A stretch of 64,000 nt of DNA. It comes from an uncultured Pirellulales bacterium (lineage in GTDB: Bacteria > Planctomycetota > Phycisphaerae > Sedimentisphaerales > SM23-30). The DNA lies in the NCBI GenBank assembly GCA_964482555.1, contig CAYZXY010000001.1, forward strand, positions 5,915 to 69,914. The letters run 5' to 3'. The position numbers and the translations under genes are program-made. The notes under the pieces were generated by a model. It was not told where the DNA came from, ran no database searches, and worked only from the letters and a program-made list of their open reading frames with translations. Positions 4,488-62,005 of this stretch are shown one piece after another. How positions within the stretch are numbered: position 1 is the stretch's first letter; each line of letters begins with the position of its first letter.

Positions 4488-5186
4488 TTATTTTGTAACG
4501 TTGTATAAAGAGTGGATGACTTTTGCCGGTTCGGGATTATCAAAAATATAACTGCCGGCTACGAGCGTATCAGCGCCAGCGTTAACGATTTCTGGTGCGG
4601 TTTCGAGGTTGATGCCGCCGTCCACTTCCAGCCGCTGATCGTCACGCAGCATGGCGCGGAGTTCGCGGGCGCGATCAAGACTCTCGGGGATGAAAGACTG
4701 GCCGCCGAAACCCGGCTCGACGGTCATCAGCAATACCATATCCACCTCGGCAATAATATCCCGCAAGGCCGCAACGGGTGTCGCCGGTTTTATGGAGAGA
4801 CCGACGGCAACGTCTTTCTCCCGCAGCAGCCGGATGACTTCGCGCGGATCGTCGTTGGCCTCCAGATGAAAGGTGATGCCGTCCGCGCCGGCGGCGATGA
4901 ACATCGGGCCGATATGCAGCGGATCGGTCACCATGATATGCACATCAAAATAAAGCCCGCTCACCCGCCGAATCTTGCGAACGACCGGCGGCCCGATCGT
5001 CAGGTTCGGTACAAAATGCCCATCCATCACATCCAGATGCAGCATCCGCACTTCCGGCTCGACCGCGGCGATATGCTCACCCAGCCGCGCGAAATCAGCG
5101 CTCAGAATCGACGGGGCTACTTCCACCGTACCCGCCGGAGGTAATGTGCGTTTCATGTTTGCACCTGCCTTTTCCAACATACTCAT
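4488..5186 (-). CDS. rpe: ribulose-phosphate 3-epimerase
   Basis: 232-aa ORF with motifs APSILSADFARLGE, HLDVMDGHFVPNLTIGP, MTVEPGFGGQSF, EVDGGIN. Confidence 0.92.
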   Translation of the reverse strand: MSMLEKAGANMKRTLPPAGTVEVAPSILSADFARLGEHIAAVEPEVRMLHLDVMDGHFVPNLTIGPPVVRKIRRVSGLYFDVHIMVTDPLHIGPMFIAAGADGITFHLEANDDPREVIRLLREKDVAVGLSIKPATPVAALRDIIAEVDMVLLMTVEPGFGGQSFIPESLDRARELRAMLRDDQRLEVDGGINLETAPEIVNAGADTLVAGSYIFDNPEPAKVIHSLYNVTK

Positions 5187-5266
5187 AACTCGTTCTTGTT
5201 TAGATGCATTATTCTAATGCTTCTGATAAATGCCGCAAGAATTATTTATGCGTAAACGCATCGCCC

Positions 5267-5992
5267 TTAGTCGGTTGTCCGGGCGAATTCGTCGATGAGG
5301 GCGACGATGTTGCTGTGGCCGTTGTTGGCGGCGAAGTCGCGGGCGGTATCACCGTCCACGTCGACGATGCGCCAGTCGGCAGAGTTCTCCAGCAGCAGGC
5401 GTACGTTGGCGGAGTGCCCTTCGGTGGCCGCGAACATCAGTGCGGTAAAGCCTTCGCTTTTTTCGACGATGTTCACCTCGGCCCCGCCGGCCAGCAGAAC
5501 TTTGATGGTATCATAAAATGGGCCGCTCGCGGCGAACATCAGCGCCGTCTGTCCCATGCTGTTCTTATGATTGACATCAGCTCCGCGTTCGAGGAGGATT
5601 TCGACCAGGGCGGTATGGCCATTATAGGCGGCCAGCATCAGGGCGGTATTGTTTATCTCACCGACGGCATTCACATCTACCCCCTCGTTGAGCAGCCGGC
5701 GGACCGTTCGCAAGTCGCCTTGCAACGCCGCTCTGAAAAAGGCTTCTCCGGCCGGTTGAACAGATTCCGATGTTTCAGCCGTCTTCCGCGTTTGTTCCGG
5801 AATTGGTTCCGGTTTCACTTCCGGTTCCGGGGCGGCAGCCGTCCCAGAGCTGTTTTCGGTTGCGGCCTGCGGCGCCGATTGCACCGGCGGCTTTTCGGGC
5901 GGAGCGGGCGGCTGCTTTGAATCACAACCGCATATATACAAAAGACCTGAGATGAAAAGACAAAACGTCATTTGATAAGTTGTTTGCCACAT
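5267..5992 (-). CDS. ankyrin-repeat lipoprotein
   Basis: 241-aa ORF. Signal plus lipobox (LLYICGC), a Pro/Glu-rich linker, then at least 4 ankyrin repeats (TALMLAAYNGHTALVEILLERGADVNHKN and others). Confidence 0.8.
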   Translation of the reverse strand: MWQTTYQMTFCLFISGLLYICGCDSKQPPAPPEKPPVQSAPQAATENSSGTAAAPEPEVKPEPIPEQTRKTAETSESVQPAGEAFFRAALQGDLRTVRRLLNEGVDVNAVGEINNTALMLAAYNGHTALVEILLERGADVNHKNSMGQTALMFAASGPFYDTIKVLLAGGAEVNIVEKSEGFTALMFAATEGHSANVRLLLENSADWRIVDVDGDTARDFAANNGHSNIVALIDEFARTTD

Positions 5993-6127
5993 AGTTCTAC
6001 CTTATCCGGTAAGACCGGAATGTCGATGGATCATGTTTAATTCTTAGCCTTTACCCTCGTTCCGTCGGTTGAGGCTAGACCGTTGCATCGCGGCTGATAC
6101 TCTTCCGCTTTAAGCCTGGACGCCTCT

Positions 6128-6520
6128 TCATGAAACCGCCTTCAAGACATGCTCAGCCACAAACACCGGCATACTGTTCACCACACCCAGAGCGATCGCA
6201 TCGCTCGGCCGTGAATCCACCTCGATCAGATCCTTTCCCCGACGGATCAGCAGCCGGGCATAAAACGTATGGTCCCGCAAATCGTTAATCACGATTTTCT
6301 CAAGCTGACCTTCCAGATCGACAATCACATTAAACAAAAGGTCATGCGTCATCGGCCGGGCAGGCAGTTCCCCCCTCAATCGCCGGTTGATCGCCAGCGC
6401 TTCGGAAATCCCGATTACAATCGGGAAAGAGCGATCGCCGAATTTCTCCTTCAACACGATAATCTGCTGTTCCGAGTTCTCCTGTATAATAATCTGGGAC
6501 AGCTCCATTTCCACTTCCAT
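6128..6520 (-). CDS. bifunctional nuclease family protein (DUF151/BFN domain)
   Basis: 130-aa ORF. FPIVIGISEALAI...RPMTHDLL...RPSDAIALG is the typical BFN-domain pattern. Confidence 0.7.
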   Translation of the reverse strand: MEVEMELSQIIIQENSEQQIIVLKEKFGDRSFPIVIGISEALAINRRLRGELPARPMTHDLLFNVIVDLEGQLEKIVINDLRDHTFYARLLIRRGKDLIEVDSRPSDAIALGVVNSMPVFVAEHVLKAVS

Positions 6521-6558
6521 AGTCTTACCTCGTTAATTAATTTTATTATAATGGGATG

Positions 6559-9500
6559 TTATTCCAGATCCGCTAGATTCTTCTTCACGCTCGCCAACTG
6601 CTCCTTGAGCTGGGCCAGCCGTTCCCGCTCCCGCTCGACCACTTCCGGTTTCGCCCGGCTGATAAAATTCTCATTTGCCAGTTTCTTCTCGCTCCCGGCA
6701 ATGCCTTTAGTCAACTCTTCCTGCTGCTTCTCCAATCGTTTCTTCTCCGCTGCCGGATCGATAACATCATCGACATAGATTTCCATCTCCTCGCTGACCG
6801 CCGTTGCCGCCCGCAAAGGCTTCTCGCAATTCGGACCAGCGACAAACGCGCTCGATGCCGTCATATTGCATATCACATGCTGCTGCTCGTTCAGCAGACT
6901 CGCCAGTGACTCATGGGTTCTTACCGACACATTCAGCTTCTTCTTCGGCGGAACCTGGTATTGAGTCCGGACGTCGCGAATCGCGCGAATCGTCGCCTGC
7001 AGGATGCCCATCTGCTGTTCCGCTTCTGCGTCGTAAAACTCCGACAGACGCTTCGGCCACTCCGCCGTAATCAACAACTCCGAACTCTCCAGTTTCGCCA
7101 GATTGCCCAGCCCGCGACCCGAACACATCTTATGCAGCTGTTGATAAATCCCTTCCGTAATAAACGGCAGGAAAGGATGCAGCAGCCGCAGACAATTATC
7201 CAGTACAAACGCCAGCAACCGCTGAGCCGTCGGCTTCAACTCCTCGTCCCGCATCCGCGGCTTGATCAGTTCCAGATACCAGTCGCACAACTCATTCCAG
7301 AAAAAACGATAAAGCTGGTTGATCGGTTCACTGAATTTGAATTCCTCCAATTGCGTCGTAACCTTGTCAATTGTATCCGCCAGCCGTGACAAAATCCACT
7401 GGTCTTCCAGGGTCATGTGCGATGGCTCGAAAGGTCCGGTTGGCGGATCTTCCAGATTTCCCAATGCAAACCGCGATGCATTCCAAAGCTTGTTACAAAA
7501 ATTCCGCCCGATGTCGAACTTGGGACTCGTATTCACCACCCGCCCGTCCGGCAGCGCCATTTCCTCCACCGGCATCCGCACATCCTGCGTCTGCGTCGTC
7601 ATGCTCGCCAGCGCAAAACGCATCGCGTCCGCCCCGTGGCTGTCGATCGCCACCAGCGGATCGATCCCGTTGCCCAGGCTCTTGCTCATCTTGCGTCCCT
7701 GCCCGTCCTGAATCATCGCATGAATAAACACATCCTTAAACGGAATATCCCCCGCGCAATACTGCCCCATCATCACCATCCGCGACACCCACAGCGTGAT
7801 AATCTCCCGTGCCGTACACAGCACGCTGCCCGGATAATAATGCTTCATCAACGCCTCGCCGTCAACCCCTTCTTCCGGCCAGCCCAACGTACTGAACGGC
7901 CACAACGCCGATGAAAACCACGTATCCAATACATCCGAATCCCGCTGCCAGCCGTCCGCCTCCAATTTCTGCTCAATATCAATATGTTCCTTGCCCACAC
8001 ACACAAAGGTCTTAGCACCTTCATCGGTGTCTATGCTAAAAGATTTGACATGGTCGCCATATTCAGAAAAAACATATCCGCTCCCCGCCTTCGACCACAC
8101 CGGAATCTGATGCCCCCACCACAACTGACGACTGATCGGCCAGTCCCGCAGATTCTCCAGCCACGTCTGATACGTCTTCGCGTACCGCTCCGGAATGAAC
8201 CGCAACCGCCCGTCCAGCAGCGGCTTCAGAGCCAGGCCCGCCAGCGAATTCACCGGCACATCCGTCCCCTCGATCGTACCGCCGCCGATGGTCTCCGCCA
8301 GATGCTCGATCGGCTTTTTCACCGCGATATACCACTGATCCGACAAATACGGCTCAATCGGTACATGACTGCGATAGCTATGCCCCACATCATGGGTATA
8401 ATCTCGCACCTTCTCCAGCAAATCCTCCTGCCGGAACCACTCAACAATCGCTTCACGGGCCTCAAACCGGTCCATCCCCAGAAAGGCCTCCGCCTCACTA
8501 TCTTCGCCCCTGGCGTCCTCCCAGCCATATTTGTCGCTGATCGAGCCATCCGGAGCCATCACATTAATCACCGGCAAACCATGCCGCAGCCCGATTGCCC
8601 AGTCATCCGGATCGTGCGCCGGGGTGACTTTCAAAAATCCCGTCGAATATTTCGCCTTCTCCTCCGAACTCTCCGGGTCCGGCAGTACCACATGCTCATC
8701 CGCGATAATCGGAATCAACCGCCCTACGATCGGCAGCCGTACCATCTTGCCCACCAGCGCCCCCGCCCGCGGATCGCGCGGGTTCATCGCCACCGCCGTA
8801 TCACCCAGCATCGTCTCCGGCCGCGTCGTCGCTACAGTTACGTGTGTTATTGTATCGCAGGCATCTTGCCCCCCCCATAATTCATCCCGGTCAAAACAAC
8901 CTATCCATTCCCATTCCTTCAATCCCGCTTTTTCCGGATTCTCCAATACATAAGCTACTTGATTCTCAAAATCTGATTCATCACATATCAAATGATCATG
9001 ATATTCAACCATCCAAAGATTACCGGTACGATTCAATACTTTATTTATCTCATCAGCTGAAAAAGACTTCCAGGAATGGACTATTTCACTAAGTTCATTA
9101 TCTCCCAACGGCCGAACGACAACATGAACATGATTAGGCATAATAACCCAAGCAACCAATTCATACCGGTTCCCATGAAAATACAATAATGCATCTTGCA
9201 CGATTTTCGCTGCTTTTGAATCTTTTAAAACACACTCGCCATGACCTGCATTTAAATAAGACTCAATTTTATCTGAGAACAAATGCTTCAATTCCATCAC
9301 TTCATGAATTGTTAGTTCTCGATTTTGCTGTTTCGCTCTATCAATAATATCCTTACGTTCCTGCTGCCATTGTTCTGACACATCAGCCGGCACAGAATCC
9401 CCTAAGCGAAAAGTAACTGCATAAGTCGCACCTTCCCTAATCCAATGCGGAATATACGCCCCTCTCCGTTTGGATATCCTCTGTACCACGGGCATCTTGC

Positions 9501-10200
9501 CCATGTTTTCTCTTTCCTCATTATTTTCCACGGGCTGGAAGCCCGTGTTACACTCCACCGCCTCCACCAGCGGATACTTCATGTACCAGAAATGACCTTG
9601 CACCGTCTCGTATTCCACTTCATCATCCGCCAGCACCGTCTGTGTCGCCGGATCCCAGTTCACCAGCCGCTTGCCCCGATAAATCAATCCATCCCGAAAC
9701 AGATTGAAAAAATTCGCCCGCACAGCCTTTGCGCACACTTCATCCATCGTGAACCGCACTCGCTCCCAGTCGCACGAACATCCCATTTTCTTAAGCTGCT
9801 CGATAATCTTTGCCTCATACTCATCCTTCCACGCCTGTACCCGTTCCACAAACTCATCCCGCTCGAAATCCGTTCGTCGCTTGCCTTCTTCCGCCAATAT
9901 CCGCTTCTCCACGACCGTCTGCGTCGCAATCCCCGCATGGTCCGTCCCCGGCATCCACAGCGTGTGATACCCCTGCATCCGCCGCCAGCGTATCAGAATA
10001 TCCTGCAATGTATTGTTCAGCGCATGACCCAGATGCAGCGCCGCCGTCACATTCGGCGGAGGGATAACAATGGTATAGGTCGGACCAGAATCCGCCCCAT
10101 CGGGAATGCCGGCATGGAAAGCATTCGCCCGGTTCCATATCTCATTGGCGTTTTCTTCGATCTCTTGCGGTGCGTATAACTTGGGCATCTCATCCAGCAT
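6559..10200 (-). CDS. valS: valine--tRNA ligase carrying an in-frame insertion of ~235 codons
   Basis: 1213-aa uninterrupted ORF. Class I motifs HLGHA (HIGH) and KMSKS, editing motif [11 protein letters not shown], and a C-terminal coiled coil. Residues ~217-450 are foreign (see the mobile_element feature). Confidence 0.95.
   Translation of the reverse strand: [1213 protein letters not shown]
8857..8874. repeat. REP-like hairpin (imperfect) at the 3' border of the embedded RayT gene
   Basis: The plus strand reads GCAGGCA-TCT-TGCCCCCC. The 14-mer GCAGGCATCTTGCC is identical to 61988-62001. The 12-mer GGCATCTTGCCC (8860-8871) repeats directly at 9491-9502. Confidence 0.6.
9487..9505. repeat. 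REP-like hairpin overlapping the internal ATG of the embedded RayT gene
   Basis: CACGGGCA-TCT-TGCCCATG. The same arms occur at 46032-46049 (CACGGGCA-AGC-TGCCCAT). Confidence 0.6.
9529..9547. repeat. perfect 8-bp hairpin at the 5' border of the insertion
   Basis: CACGGGCT-GGA-AGCCCGTG. It shares the CACGGGC arm with the 9487 and 46032 hairpins and lies inside the valS reading frame (NTGFQPVEN). Confidence 0.55.
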
Positions 10201-10242
10201 ATGCGGTATTACTTTCTTAAGTGTTTTGTTTACATGCGATTA

Positions 10243-10345
10243 TAATCGTCATGATTTAATGTACCCGTTTTGACCAAACGTAATTATTTGCGGATAAAAC
10301 ACTTACGATTGGCACTGACGGGCATCCACAGAAAACCTTAATTAT
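10243..10345 (+). repeat. diverged copy of the MITE-like element
   Basis: TAATCGTCATGATTTAATGTACCCGTTTTGACCAAACGTAATTATTTGCGGATAAAACACTTACG aligns with the consensus. The right third has diverged. The left end lies 42 nt upstream of the valS ATG. Confidence 0.6.
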
Positions 10346-10677
10346 AAGTGACTGATACCCCTTGTCAAGCAACCGCTTTCCCGTCCACCATGGGCAGTAT
10401 GCACATCCCGCCTTATCAGACGTCATGGTCCACTTACAGTTTTTTCTATGTCAGAACCCTTAACACTTGGCCCGGATAAACTGAAAATCCGAAATAGAAG
10501 ATGTTCTCTGGTGTTATGATGATTTACAGTGAAATGCTTTATGGACGTCATGCCTGATATGCGGAAACAACCCTCCGAGGCATCATTTTCGCCAGTACTC
10601 ATTTTTATTGATTTAGCATTTTTCTGTAAGCGTTTTGGCGTTCCGCAGGGTCTGTTAAGCCTTTTCCTGAAATGTTA

Positions 10678-10778
10678 TACTCGTTCCGATGGATAATTCC
10701 CGTTTTGCCCAAACGTAAATATATGCGGGAAAATCTTTAACGTCTGGCCCTGGCGGGAACTCTTATACCTTTTGGGTA
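10678..10778 (+). repeat. 101-bp MITE-like element, F orientation
   Basis: Full-length alignment to the consensus. TA at 10676-10677 and at 10779-10780. Confidence 0.8.
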
Positions 10779-10906: not shown

Positions 10907-11647
10907 TCAACGTTTTCTTCCGAAAAGAAAAATACTCGATCCCAGCAGGATCATGCTGAACGTCGCTGGTTCCGGAACGTAAATCTGATCGAATGTCTGC
11001 GAAATATTTTCCAGTTTGACCGTGCCGTCATCAGCGGCAAAAATAATATCTTTCTCCACCAGGATATTCTTTTCCGCCGTTTCTTCACCATTGACACTGA
11101 AAATCACAGAACTATTCAGATTCTCAGATAATGCACCATTAACCATACCTGCGAAAACACCAAAATCAGCGATCGGATCTAATTTGAAATTCGGCTCGCC
11201 ATCTATAATCGGATGGATGTTTTCCGAAATACCGATGGTACCGTTTTGCACATTGGCAAAACTGTACGCCACCAGACTCATGTTGGCGCCGGAGATAAAA
11301 TAATCGGGATATGCATTCAGAATTTTAACGGAAAAAGAAATCTGAGCGTCAAGCGTTGCGCCAGATACTGCCCAGTCATCGGGAAATTGAATATCAATGC
11401 CGGGAGCTGCTCCCGGAATCGGCACAATGATGAATTGCTCCAGATCGCTGGATAAGCTTTCGCTGCTTACCACAAAATCATAAAAGAGCTTGTCTTCGAT
11501 TTCAATCCCGCCGGCGTCATTGATCGCCGCCATGGTCATAGATTCTTCCAGCGACTCACTATCGGCAATGGATCCATATGCCGGAATTCCCTGTAACCCC
11601 CATATCAAAAAACCTGCAAACAAACAAGCAAATATAAACGTCTTCAT
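10907..11647 (-). CDS. PEP-CTERM sorting-domain secreted protein
   Basis: 246-aa ORF with a signal peptide. The C-terminus VPEPATFSMILLGSSIFLFGRKR is the PEP motif plus a TM helix plus a basic tail. Confidence 0.85.
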   Translation of the reverse strand: MKTFIFACLFAGFLIWGLQGIPAYGSIADSESLEESMTMAAINDAGGIEIEDKLFYDFVVSSESLSSDLEQFIIVPIPGAAPGIDIQFPDDWAVSGATLDAQISFSVKILNAYPDYFISGANMSLVAYSFANVQNGTIGISENIHPIIDGEPNFKLDPIADFGVFAGMVNGALSENLNSSVIFSVNGEETAEKNILVEKDIIFAADDGTVKLENISQTFDQIYVPEPATFSMILLGSSIFLFGRKR

Positions 11648-27618: not shown

Positions 27619-27635
27619 GCAGGCAGGATGCCTGC
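27619..27635. repeat. REP-like hairpin
   Basis: GCAGGCA-GGA-TGCCTGC, a perfect 7-bp stem, intergenic. Its arms are the same as at 61988-62004. Confidence 0.55.
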
Positions 27636-27698
27636 GTAACAGCCTTTGCAACAGGATCAAACTAAATTGTCTTTCAGCATTATAAGTGAATAATGCCC

Positions 27699-37270: not shown

Positions 37271-38104
37271 TCACGCTTTTCGTCCGGTAATGAGCAGAAT
37301 GCTTCTCCAGGGAACTACAACAGAAGTCAACAGCAGCCTCATCAAACGCGGAATTTTTTTCGTCATGCCGGAACAGAACCGCCATGACGCCAGCTCCTGC
37401 GTTTTTAGATATCTCTTTTTGGAAATCCTGAATCCTGCCTGCTCCATTGATGTTGATAATTCTGACATCGTATATTCTCTAATATGCATAATTAGATCTG
37501 TGATATGGTTCATACCTTCATCGTTATCAGGAAAAGGTTCCATGATATTTCTGCCCAACATAAGCATCGCTATATTATTCAACCTTGCGATATTTGGCGT
37601 CGTAAGAACAAGATAGCCATTGGGTTTTAATATCCTATACAATTCTCCTAAAACTCTCAGGGGGGACATGCGTAAATGCTCCAGCACTTCTGACAATATG
37701 ACTATGTCGAAACTTTCATCTGGAATAGACTCGCCAGGTTGAAAAATATTATAGGGAATAACTGGAATATCATATTTCCTCGGGAGATGGCAATACAAAT
37801 CGATGTTTTCTGAAAGATCAGCGCCGGTCACGTCAAAATTATAACATTTCTTAAAGACGATATCGTAAAAACCATAGGCGATCCCAATATCAAGAATCTT
37901 CTTACCAGATGCTACCGGGGCCAAAAGCTTCACCATTTCATGAATTCTATAGTAACTGTCATAAAAATATCTCTTGGCGCTGTCCGAAGAAATAATATTC
38001 GATCTGTAATCTCTTCCTGAACTTTTAAATACTTCATCGATTTCATGCACTATTTCATGTAGTGTGTTGTCAATTATTATCATGGCATACGATCCAATAG
38101 TCAC
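37271..38104 (-). CDS. class I SAM-dependent methyltransferase
   Basis: 277-aa ORF with motif I ILDIGIAYGFY and a post-I acidic residue, plus VILSEVLEHL. The gene is AT-rich. Confidence 0.7.
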   Translation of the reverse strand: MTIGSYAMIIIDNTLHEIVHEIDEVFKSSGRDYRSNIISSDSAKRYFYDSYYRIHEMVKLLAPVASGKKILDIGIAYGFYDIVFKKCYNFDVTGADLSENIDLYCHLPRKYDIPVIPYNIFQPGESIPDESFDIVILSEVLEHLRMSPLRVLGELYRILKPNGYLVLTTPNIARLNNIAMLMLGRNIMEPFPDNDEGMNHITDLIMHIREYTMSELSTSMEQAGFRISKKRYLKTQELASWRFCSGMTKKIPRLMRLLLTSVVVPWRSILLITGRKA

Positions 38105-38138
38105 AGTATGGACTAATCAAGTAAATATTGTGTGATTT

Positions 38139-39341
38139 TTAAAATAACGATGTATAGATACTGTCGAGTAGCTTTTTCGTATGTTTACTAGTTCGATTTT
38201 GAATGATTGTCCTTCGAGCATTTTTACAAATCGAATTCAATGAATCATAATGGTCTAAAATAAAGATAATTTTTTCAACCAATGATTTAGAGACCCCTTT
38301 TTCGTAAACAATGCCGTTTTCATTATTAACCAACAATTCAGTTATACCTTTGACATTACTTCCCAATACTATTTTTTCCATAGCCATTCCTTCCAATATT
38401 TTGGAGGGATTACTACATTCAGCAACCCAGGAAGGCATCATCGGCACAACCAGCACATCAATCGCTTTATAATATCGAGGCATTTGGTCATATGGAACCT
38501 GGCCTAATAGTTCTAATAGTTCAGGTTCAGTATTTCGATATTTTTCAATCTCATTGACCAGCGGACCTCTCCCGCAAATGACAACTTTCATTATGTTCTT
38601 ATGTTGCTCAGAAATATGCTTGAGTGACTCAAGGAAAAAAAGGACGCCATTACTGGGATGTAGCAATCCGCTATACATAAAAACTATCTTATCTTCCCAG
38701 CCATATTTATGACGTAAATATGCTCTGTCATCTTCATATTTTTTTGAATCAAATATTGCTTCATTAACAGCGGCTGGTATGATTCGTATCTTGTCTGAAT
38801 CAATCCTGAATAATTCAATAAGACGTTCCTTTTTCATTTTGGTTTGAACAATAATGCGATCCGCCTTTTGTATAAAAGAAGCCTCTTCGATCAAAGAAGC
38901 TTTTTTAATAACTGGCTTGAAAAAAGGGGAAATATTGGGATTTATCTCAACGCTGTCAAACGGCAATTGATGGTATTCATAAATTAACGGTAACTTTTTT
39001 TTTCGAGCGACGTTTAGTGCTGCTCGATAATACACAGCAGGATTATGTCCGTGTACAATATCATAATTCCCTTGAGAGGCTTTTTTTGCCATGCATCCGG
39101 CATTCATGATGGATATGGGATCAATAAGCGGAGGTGAAAACATAAGTTTTTTCCTTAAGCAATGCCTGAATACTTTTACATTGTCATACTCGCTCTGTTC
39201 CGGGATTACTTCACATTTTAAATCAGGATAAGGTACGTGAAGGTAATGGGTGTTCTCGTCACCTGTCAACATGTACAATAATCTGGAGGTCGTACCTCCA
39301 TACTGGGGTATAAAAGAATGTGCAAAATGGAGGATTTTCAA
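38139..39341 (-). CDS. GT-B glycosyltransferase (family 4-like)
   Basis: 400-aa ORF. The C-terminal domain pattern (VVPMMPSWVAECSNPSKILEGMAMEKIVLGSNVKGITELL) resembles the E-x7-E GT4 motif region. The gene is AT-rich. Confidence 0.7.
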   Translation of the reverse strand: MKILHFAHSFIPQYGGTTSRLLYMLTGDENTHYLHVPYPDLKCEVIPEQSEYDNVKVFRHCLRKKLMFSPPLIDPISIMNAGCMAKKASQGNYDIVHGHNPAVYYRAALNVARKKKLPLIYEYHQLPFDSVEINPNISPFFKPVIKKASLIEEASFIQKADRIIVQTKMKKERLIELFRIDSDKIRIIPAAVNEAIFDSKKYEDDRAYLRHKYGWEDKIVFMYSGLLHPSNGVLFFLESLKHISEQHKNIMKVVICGRGPLVNEIEKYRNTEPELLELLGQVPYDQMPRYYKAIDVLVVPMMPSWVAECSNPSKILEGMAMEKIVLGSNVKGITELLVNNENGIVYEKGVSKSLVEKIIFILDHYDSLNSICKNARRTIIQNRTSKHTKKLLDSIYTSLF

Positions 39342-61939: not shown

Positions 61940-61986
61940 TAGCCAAAGAACGCCCGATAACTCGTTCTTGTTGCGGAAACATATAT

Positions 61987-62005
61987 TGCAGGCATCTTGC
62001 CTGCA
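61987..62005. repeat. REP-like hairpin
   Basis: TGCAGGCA-TCT-TGCCTGCA, a perfect 8-bp stem. The 14-mer GCAGGCATCTTGCC is identical to the valS insertion border at 8857-8870. Confidence 0.6.

Follow-up and report, generated by a model that had tools for sequence, protein, structure and literature searches.

The closest described relatives of the element treated here are the tyrosine transposases associated with repetitive extragenic palindromes (REPs), known as RAYT or TnpA-REP, and the REPtrons, reportedly described by Nunvar in 2010, by Bertels and Rainey in 2011, and by Ton-Hoang and by Messing in 2012, with YafM of Escherichia coli (PDB 4ER8) as an example. The element also recalls the Rickettsia palindromic elements (RPE), which Ogata is said to have found in 2000 inserted in frame in proteins, and the IStrons, which live inside open reading frames (ORFs) without killing them. 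We found it in a stretch of 64,000 nucleotides from an uncultured Pirellulales bacterium (contig CAYZXY010000001.1; the whole stretch is called the window hereafter), where valS, the gene for valyl-tRNA synthetase (ValRS), contains in frame a RayT-type Y1 HUH transposase domain, bordered by hairpins of the REP type that are read as protein together with it.

In published work, TnpA-REP of E. coli is a monomer and the TnpA proteins of IS200/IS605 are obligate dimers (PMC3479197). A GT(G/A)N tag at the foot of the hairpin is given as a hallmark of the GTAG-class REPs in the consulted parts of two reports (PMC3479197; PMC3733652), and in-frame intragenic REPs are, in the consulted part of the 2013 survey by Di Nocera, most numerous in the verrucomicrobium Opitutus terrae and in Rickettsia conorii and often lie in genes of replication and repair (PMC3733652); the same part does not report RayT genes inside host ORFs. 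REP-flanked RAYTs and in-frame intragenic REPs are known already, and the habit of embedding the transposase itself is apparently undescribed: no description of a RayT or other Y1 transposase in frame inside an aminoacyl-tRNA synthetase (aaRS) or another host ORF was found in the literature searched, the coverage of which was incomplete. A large survey of Y1 enzymes had set aside "unexpectedly long proteins", regarding them as fusions or errors (PMC6006769).

Results

An intact valS gene with a RayT domain in its CP1 loop

The gene and the main parts of its insert are the following.

6559..10200, minus strand: valS including the insert, one uninterrupted ORF of 1213 codons (ORF list, Pfam, NCBIfam and independent assembly)
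8899..9468, minus strand: RayT (TnpA-REP-like Y1 HUH) core, codons 245-434 (Pfam, NCBIfam, homologues, structural model and match to 4ER8)
9124..9132, minus strand: HUH motif H357-V358-H359, aligned with PEHMH of E. coli TnpA-REP (4ER8)
8950..8952, minus strand: putative catalytic tyrosine Y417 (YVLENP), aligned with the YIYINP segment of 4ER8

The 1213-aa product contains the HLGHA, KMSKS and ATTRPET motifs and scores far above the cutoffs of the ValRS models (equivalog NF004349 of NCBIfam, 1056.6 bits against 704; TIGR00422, 914.5 bits against 612), with the Pfam domains tRNA-synt_1, Anticodon_1 and Val_tRNA-synt_C. Equivalog model, HIGH and KMSKS signatures and the editing motif of connective peptide 1 (CP1) together assign it to the class Ia valyl-tRNA synthetases. 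With the insert removed, the ValRS body is 76% identical to its nearest insert-free relative and is evidently under strong constraint. An independent sequencing run, assembled by Logan (SRR7048221), matches window positions 4559-10705 over 6147 nt with 1 mismatch and 0 gaps, and misassembly is therefore excluded. A preliminary description of this DNA had recognized the single intact ORF with its three motifs and the in-frame insertion without a stop codon, both of which hold; it had also considered that a misassembly, or a stop or frameshift in the insert, might undo the observation. The independent assembly reproduces the gene, more than 120 other ValRS are filled at the identical site, and neither a stop nor a frameshift was found.

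The spacing from WYMKYPL to ATTRPET is 245 residues in the window ValRS and 16 in insert-free orthologues. This amounts to about 229 extra codons, instead of the approximately 235 first estimated, in the hairpin loop with which the CP1 editing domain begins, and comparison with orthologues agrees with the site as originally placed, between WYMKYPL and the CP1 editing motif. Taken alone, the insert matches Pfam Y1_Tnp significantly (E = 2.4e-7; 31.3 bits, gathering threshold 23), as the preliminary description had expected. It scores 80.5 bits with NCBIfam NF047646 (REP_Tyr_transpos), marginally over the cutoff of 80, the whole protein reaching 75.3 bits, and 23 bits against a cutoff of 55 with the IS200 equivalog NF033573. 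More than 1800 homologues of the RayT core were retrieved at 50-62% identity, and their sources call them RayT. The AlphaFold2 (AF2) model of the insert has a predicted local distance difference test (pLDDT) score of 87, and its best match in the PDB is 4ER8_A, E. coli TnpA-REP with a REP hairpin (Foldseek E = 1.1e-8; template modelling (TM) scores 0.49 and 0.61). The moderate TM scores are due to an extra helical insertion, modelled as about 85 residues that TnpA-REP does not have, between strand 1 and the HUH motif. In the profile search (hmmsearch) 4ER8 again came top (E = 3.7e-8), and further structural matches (PDB 2XMA, 2F4F and 2VJV) share the IS200/IS605 transposase fold.

Both histidines of the HUH motif and the tyrosine are retained in all 129 ValRS inserts, and also in 39 of 39 embedded copies of the RayT-core set, ValRS loci included. 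Furthermore, the xPHW and EYYDHLIRDE motifs are essentially invariant across ValRS inserts, and some 40 further positions are at least 90% conserved. In the RayT core the proportion of nonsynonymous differences (pN) is 0.14-0.26 and that of synonymous differences (pS) 0.72-0.93; since synonymous sites are saturated in every DNA pair available, the statement on selection is limited to pN being far below pS. Judged by sequence and predicted fold, the insert is, as first proposed, a genuine Y1 HUH domain of the RayT type, its HUH and catalytic motifs being intact.

The block is visibly AT-rich, as had been pointed out before, with a GC content of 0.36-0.38 inside the insert against 0.55-0.62 in the flanks. 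At third codon positions (GC3) the difference is larger, as shown by a two-state segmentation.

8833..9456, minus strand: low-GC3 tract, codons 249-456, spanning the RayT core, the 3' REP and the ITHVTV codons

GC3 is 0.31 in this tract and 0.69 in the remaining valS, most other genes of the window having values of 0.55-0.70. It extends over ITHVTV as far as the invariant ATTRPET.

REP hairpins translated at both junctions

The hairpins and the 12-nt direct repeat that had been noticed around the insert are real, and the repeat is longer than stated, with 18 matches over 21 nt (8851-8871 and 9482-9502). The corresponding features are these.

9529..9553, minus strand: 5' REP hairpin A, GTGTAA tag followed by CACGGGC-TTCCA-GCCCGTG, a perfect 7-bp stem, read as NTGFQPV
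9482..9505, minus strand: 5' REP hairpin B, CATGGGC-AAGAT-GCCCGTG followed by a GTACA tail, with inverted and direct repeats, read as MGKMPVV
8851..8873, minus strand: 3' REP, GGGGGC-AAGAT-GCCTGC followed by a GATACA tail, second copy of the direct repeat, read as GGQDACDT
27619..27641, plus strand: intergenic REP of the junction variant, GCAGGC-AGGAT-GCCTGC-GTAACA (pattern search)
61982..62004, minus strand: intergenic REP of the junction variant, GCAGGC-AAGAT-GCCTGC-AATATA (pattern search)

The stem-loop proper spans 9529-9547 in hairpin A and 9487-9505 in hairpin B. Both stand in opposite orientation and make up an inverted, REPIN-like doublet (9482-9553; 24-nt arms, 23 nt between). Because 631 nt separate the two AAGAT copies, translation takes them in different frames, one as GKMPV and the other as GQDA. 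The REP variant of the 3' junction occurs three times in the window, twice in intergenic DNA, against 0.00 occurrences expected from shuffles.

The junctions of 11 orthologous valS loci carry from one to seven such hairpins each. Their stems differ from one another and still pair perfectly over 7 bp (CGAGGGC, CATGGGC, CACGGGC, CGCGGGC or CAGGGGC with the respective complements), the loops being AAGAT/AGGAT, GGGAC/GAGAC or TTCCA, and a GT(G/A)N tag stands at the hairpin foot on both sides. At the 3' junctions the orthologous hairpins are perfect, with compensatory changes in the stems. The type of hairpin A, with its GFQP(V/M) peptide, also occurs at the 5' junction of ValRS, LeuRS, DnaE and TatD inserts in other lineages. 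Genes with a GC3 of 0.85-0.9 still use GGG-CAA-GAT-GCC at the junction, and the constraint therefore lies on the DNA and not on the peptide alone. Over all fetched loci, 113 hairpins of REP design were counted against 3 expected from shuffles; covariation statistics would be circular for the 111 hairpins that were collected by complementarity, and support comes from this enrichment and from the orthologous junctions, which were unselected. Read in all six frames, the consensus REPs are free of stop codons. By these signs the hairpins and the direct repeat around the insert are REP elements, translated as protein. They flank it with a conserved, GTAG-like tetranucleotide, as a doublet on one side and as a single, partly eroded copy on the other.

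Some orthologues show further REP arrangements. At the 3' junction of one valS locus (L013:4001-5293), and likewise in P0169, as many as seven REP hairpins stand in tandem (CGCGGGCAGGATGCCCGCGACAC) and are translated within ValRS as a series of RGQD(A/G)RDT repeats; REPs thus multiply on the spot, beside RayT. A lone REP peptide (NANNHGQDARAT or NSNEHGQDARAT) without transposase is found in a second surface loop of ValRS in some orthologues (VVLPN..DEKAKFSTGF, equivalent to about 8640-8690 of the window), an in-frame REP insertion of the RPE kind.

Start and expression of the insert

The preliminary description had taken the insert for a complete free-standing gene with a Shine-Dalgarno (SD)-like site 6 nt before an internal ATG. 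The Y1 domain is intact and the site exists, although its spacer is 5 nt long and the start is not conserved.

9502..9519, minus strand: SD-like GAGGAAAGAG (9519-9510), 5-nt spacer and in-frame ATG (9504-9502), between the two 5' REPs
10341..10368, minus strand: sigma-70-like promoter match TTGACA-16-TATAAT, 12/12, upstream of valS (consensus scan, pattern match only)

A methionine within 40 residues before the xPHW motif is present in 30 of the 129 ValRS inserts, and the consensus scan found no promoter-like site directly upstream of the insert on the valS strand. The putative site at 10341..10368 is likely the source of transcription for the whole valS ORF, insert included. The few upstream methionines, the lack of a promoter-like site before the insert and the full match upstream of valS argue therefore for expression within ValRS, in which the cassette would be transcribed and translated as an internal passenger domain. 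The SD-like site and ATG at 9502..9519 are possibly the leftover start of a once free-standing RayT.

Filled and empty valS alleles among close relatives

A search with the full protein returned more than 100 ValRS of 1176-1371 aa, all with an insert of 229-291 residues at the same site, from Phycisphaerae, Sedimentisphaerales and Anaerobaca lacustris. This canonical site is filled in at least 128 ValRS of Phycisphaerae, and RayTs of the same subfamily lie in dozens of unrelated hosts (see below), so that the arrangement is not the singular one it was first taken for. When the insert was removed from the query, mostly insert-free ValRS of about 980 aa were found, at 68-76% identity; the joint comparison set comprised 128 filled and 121 empty ValRS. 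No second transposase copy was found within the 64-kb window.

The window ValRS is the sole filled member of a clade of 19 sequences. Its 14 nearest relatives are all empty, and it is sister to the insert-free P0240 in 100 of 100 bootstraps. There are pairs of ValRS, 93-95% identical outside the insert, that differ by the whole cassette (P0159/P0250, P0136/P0278 and P0136/P0294), and 14 of the 39 clusters formed at a body distance of 0.15 are mixed in state. In such pairs the residues adjacent to the insert differ as well, being ITY in filled alleles and FEH or IEH in empty ones, which looks like co-conversion of the flanks during allele replacement. Distances of insert and body show a weak correlation (r = 0.36), with the insert evolving at about twice the rate of the ValRS body. 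Some pairs are discordant in that their inserts resemble each other far more than their bodies do, for instance L008/P0198, with a distance of 0.16 for the insert and 0.29 for the body. The position of the window ValRS in its clade and the GC3 of 0.31 against 0.69 suggest that its copy is a recent lateral gain at the canonical site.

The neighbour-joining (NJ) trees of the ValRS body were built initially on a sample biased towards filled alleles, to which the 121 empty alleles were added later. By parsimony, the first sample suggested an ancestral insert with 5 losses; with the empty alleles the count of state changes rose to 48.

Two other observations concern the valS alleles. The segment between WWGHxIP and DVLDTWFSS (window ~7930-8110) measures about 50 aa in most ValRS and 100-130 aa in 44 of them; this long form is not derived from REPs, and 40 of the 44 are also filled with RayT. 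P0159 and P0250, 93% identical elsewhere, differ in this segment too, which makes valS alleles look mosaic. Moreover, GGGCAA is present in the DNA of three of six empty sites, suggestive of a half-REP target or scar.

RayT of the same subfamily inside other host genes

Matches that seemed free-standing proved to be parts of Sua5 and LeuRS with an in-frame RayT and the same REP peptide on both sides. A scan of species-representative genomes gave 80 RayT loci. Of the 64 outside the canonical ValRS site, about 28 lie within long open frames, and their hosts were recognized from Pfam matches on either side of the insert. The hosts are listed below, to which CarB and PdxA are to be added.

LeuRS, in Akkermansiaceae and Sumerlaeota
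ValRS at a second site, in Chthoniobacterales
AlaRS, in-frame RayT
DnaE, in-frame RayT
DinG-like helicases, in-frame RayT
MetH, at two sites
IspG, in-frame RayT
Ddl, in-frame RayT
GH38, in-frame RayT
FabZ, in-frame RayT
TatD, in-frame RayT
MmeI/Eco57I-type and Type ISP restriction-modification enzymes, in-frame RayT
DUF5107-TPR protein, in-frame RayT

Lineage-specific REP peptides of its own stand on the two sides of each embedded copy. When 1.84 billion cluster representatives were searched without an index, 9360 matches were returned; among the best 150 of these, 63 (about 42%) exceed 400 aa and were taken as embedded. Altogether 62 Pfam families co-occur with the RayT domain in long proteins. 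Embedded and free copies are intermixed in the RayT tree, which contains several host switches, with Ddl within the ValRS clade, DUF5107 within a MetH clade and AlaRS within a FabZ clade.

The commonest hosts in the census of long proteins (P0356-P0492) are Eco57I/MmeI-type (12 of 62) and Type ISP (5 of 62) enzymes. Restriction-modification hosts are non-essential, and essentiality of the host is therefore not required. On a Chthoniobacterales contig (L004:1-1895) a single open LeuRS frame carries RayT in its CP1 editing domain with KSGIGFQPM on both sides, a host that had remained hidden because the gene caller began the protein at an internal methionine. In P0001 a RayT that groups within the ValRS-insert clade (NJ) is followed by a PP-loop ATPase-like sequence (LLGISG..), which could represent a jump from valS to a candidate PP-loop ATPase host gene. 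Some genomes contain two RayT copies of the subfamily (L026 and L067 in the metagenome-assembled genome JADLAK01, L041 and L058, and L053 and L068), among them a combination of one copy embedded in AlaRS and one free-standing; the subfamily is therefore not strictly single-copy.

Neighbourhood of valS and other features of the window

Directly downstream of valS lies a gene with a BFN domain (PF02577; 6128-6520, minus strand), and this synteny is common to Anaerobaca lacustris and the insert-free P0240 locus. An ORF of 246 aa at 10907-11647 (minus strand) has, by eye, a PEP-CTERM-like C-terminal sorting signal (VPEPATFSMILLGSSIFLFGRKR). Two adjacent ORFs at 37271-39272 (minus strand) have GC3 values of 0.41 and 0.33 against the window norm of 0.55-0.70; the insert aside, these are the lowest among window ORFs of at least 250 codons, and the two may be foreign too.

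Discussion

The results are best explained, and with good probability, by a REP-bounded RayT cassette (a "nested REPtron") that ends without a stop codon, is carried as a passenger domain by ValRS and spreads between alleles in a homing-like manner. Of the three ideas put forward in the preliminary description, the best fit is that of a selfish element which owes its survival in an essential gene to being in frame. The cassette would sit where the CP1 editing domain is entered, on the tip of a beta-hairpin loop; REP ends free of stops, a RayT frame open into the host and a permissive surface loop together would leave the essential enzyme intact. By its distribution, the cassette at the ValRS site is evidently old and widespread in Phycisphaerae, and its history is evidently not a simply vertical one, because filled and empty alleles alternate among close relatives and the distances of insert and body correlate weakly. 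Transfer from valS to valS would proceed through the highly conserved flanks by homologous recombination, which nicking by RayT might stimulate, in a way that resembles the homing of inteins and introns with co-conversion of flanks, and with rare jumps to other genes. The domain may act as a monomeric, REP-hairpin-guided single-stranded DNA (ssDNA) nuclease/transferase, activity as an inserted domain being plausible in view of the monomeric TnpA-REP of E. coli; its work would be the upkeep of the REPs scattered over the genome and, on rare occasions, the movement of an entire REP-RayT-REP unit. It is tempting to speculate that residence in an essential gene provides expression and shields the element from deletion, frameshift and nonsense decay.

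Several observations weigh against this explanation or restrict it. The deep ValRS phylogeny is star-like, with group distances all at about 0.30, and control indels are nearly as homoplastic as the insert in the NJ trees; inference from the deep tree was dropped for these reasons, and the near-identical filled and empty pairs were used instead. The 48 state changes are to be taken as a maximum, and only for the tip cases can gain and loss be told apart with confidence. Besides, the full-length AF2 model (1147 aa, from an alignment of 47 sequences; pLDDT 55.9, predicted TM score 0.43) is too poor to place the insert relative to CP1 or to show it as a free lobe. Lower GC3 of the insert was found in 9 of 11 loci, and weaker codon selection on passenger domains, instead of a foreign origin, may account for part of it. 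Finally, in the window copy the 5' arm of the 3' REP is eroded, and with only three copies of the REP variant in 64 kb the current activity of RayT may be low.

The same data can be read in other ways. A fully domesticated RayT, inherited vertically and serving the host by REP processing, with empty alleles as occasional deletions, would account for the perfect conservation of the catalytic residues, for the grouping of the ValRS inserts in one clade among RayTs, and for a window with cognate REPs elsewhere and no second copy; it would also agree with the account of RAYTs as typically single-copy and vertical genes in the consulted part of PMC5581495. We nevertheless regard it as unlikely, given that ValRS 93-95% identical alternate between filled and empty, that the window copy is the one filled member of its clade and has a foreign GC3, that insert and body distances correlate weakly, and that relatives occupy dozens of unrelated genes, with host switches in the RayT tree. 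An exaptation specific to ValRS, as the preliminary description had also considered, would make the domain an additional module by which the editing domain binds nucleic acid or is regulated, for example in tRNA handling. Its place in CP1 beside the ATTRPET editing motif, its long life in a large clade and the recurrence of class I aaRS as hosts (ValRS at two sites, LeuRS at least three times) speak for it, yet the same domain with REP flanks occurs in MetH, IspG, Ddl, FabZ, GH38, CarB, PdxA and restriction-modification enzymes, about half of the close ValRS relatives are without it, near-identical ValRS gain or lose it, and tRNA binding needs neither conserved nuclease residues nor DNA hairpins at the junctions. 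The chance that this idea is right appears slight.

The prospects of an inert, trapped relic, the frame of which would be kept open only since a stop or frameshift would kill valS while the domain stays idle, are smaller again. Nonsense and frameshift mutations in the insert would indeed be lethal to the host gene, and the eroded 3' REP and the sparse REPs of the window fit such a relic; missense decay, in contrast, would be free, and yet the two histidines and the tyrosine are kept in 129 of 129 inserts, conservation reaches at least 90% at some 40 other positions, pN falls far short of pS, and the junction hairpins go on pairing through compensatory changes. Removal of the insert from the protein, like an intein, or from the mRNA, like an intron or IStron, is hardly credible. 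The host range (aaRS, DnaE, helicases), the occupancy of the same site and the sporadic distribution would be expected of it, whereas Pfam and NCBIfam scans detected no Hint or intein family, the junctions are variable REP peptides without a conserved pattern of Cys/Ser ... His-Asn-Cys/Ser/Thr, and no Rfam family, group I and II introns included, matched positions 8400-10000 at E <= 1. As to an artefact, be it a misassembly, a chimeric join or a decaying duplicate of valS, the abrupt step in composition at the insert could point to a chimera; with a second assembly from another run identical save 1 mismatch, at least 128 other ValRS filled at the same site and a valS body above the equivalog cutoff and well conserved, its probability is negligible.

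The REP-bounded cassette read in frame within its host, which we favour, shares with RAYT/TnpA-REP the Y1 HUH fold, the HUH and Y..NP motifs and the best match in sequence and fold, and with the RAYT REPtrons the flanking REP hairpins with a GTNN foot tag, often inverted. The two intergenic copies of the junction type within 64 kb would accord with the dispersed cognate REPs of RAYTs. The cassette differs from RAYTs and REPtrons in that the insert has no conserved start, stop or promoter, that domain and REPs are translated inside a host protein, and that its distribution is sporadic and homing-like, against the vertical single-copy inheritance described for RAYTs; it is not the stand-alone, vertically inherited gene that a RAYT is. 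As with intragenic REPs and the RPE, palindromic repeats stand in frame in known and often essential proteins. Those repeats are short (encoding 20-80 residues) and non-autonomous, whereas here the transposase itself lies within the in-frame insert. Inteins and homing endonuclease genes are likewise selfish in-frame cassettes in conserved essential genes (aaRS, DnaE, helicases), with a site shared across lineages in alternation with empty alleles, a history discordant with that of the host gene and flanks that change too. Unlike inteins, the insert has neither a Hint domain nor splicing residues, lies in a surface loop and not in an active-site motif, presumably stays in the mature protein, and has a Y1 HUH ssDNA enzyme as its nuclease. 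Transposase fold and a unit of about 0.7 kb with subterminal hairpins are common to IS200/IS605, whose TnpA is dimeric and has its own start and stop, in contrast to an insert with neither and with a single copy in the window; and whereas IStrons carry a group I ribozyme, none is detectable in 8400-10000 (Rfam, E <= 1). Judged by its sequence, the insert is not classifiable as an intein, an IStron or other self-splicing intron, or an IS200/IS605 insertion sequence. There is a substantial chance that the embedded cassettes deserve recognition as a class of their own. That they form a distinct and so far unnamed class of mobile element, namely stop-free, REP-bounded RayT units that colonise permissive loops of essential and housekeeping genes, are expressed solely as passenger domains and spread from allele to allele in a homing-like fashion, by RayT nicking with recombination and co-conversion of flanks, as a non-splicing counterpart of inteins built on a Y1 HUH transposase, is a real possibility to be held tentatively.

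For annotation and phylogenomics, it follows that markers like valS, leuS, alaS and dnaE are mosaic genes in the Planctomycetes-Verrucomicrobia-Chlamydiae (PVC) group, Armatimonadota and related phyla. The insertion points provide a natural catalogue of permissive sites, since loops in aaRS, DnaE, MetH, IspG and other proteins tolerate a folded domain of about 200 residues. The system also offers a testable, homing-like process built on an ssDNA HUH nuclease, for which a cultured carrier exists (Anaerobaca lacustris). If the explanation preferred here is true, it would represent a new way for transposases to persist in bacteria, as translated passengers inside essential proteins, and it would bear on how RAYT and REP systems are maintained and on whether they are selfish or domesticated.

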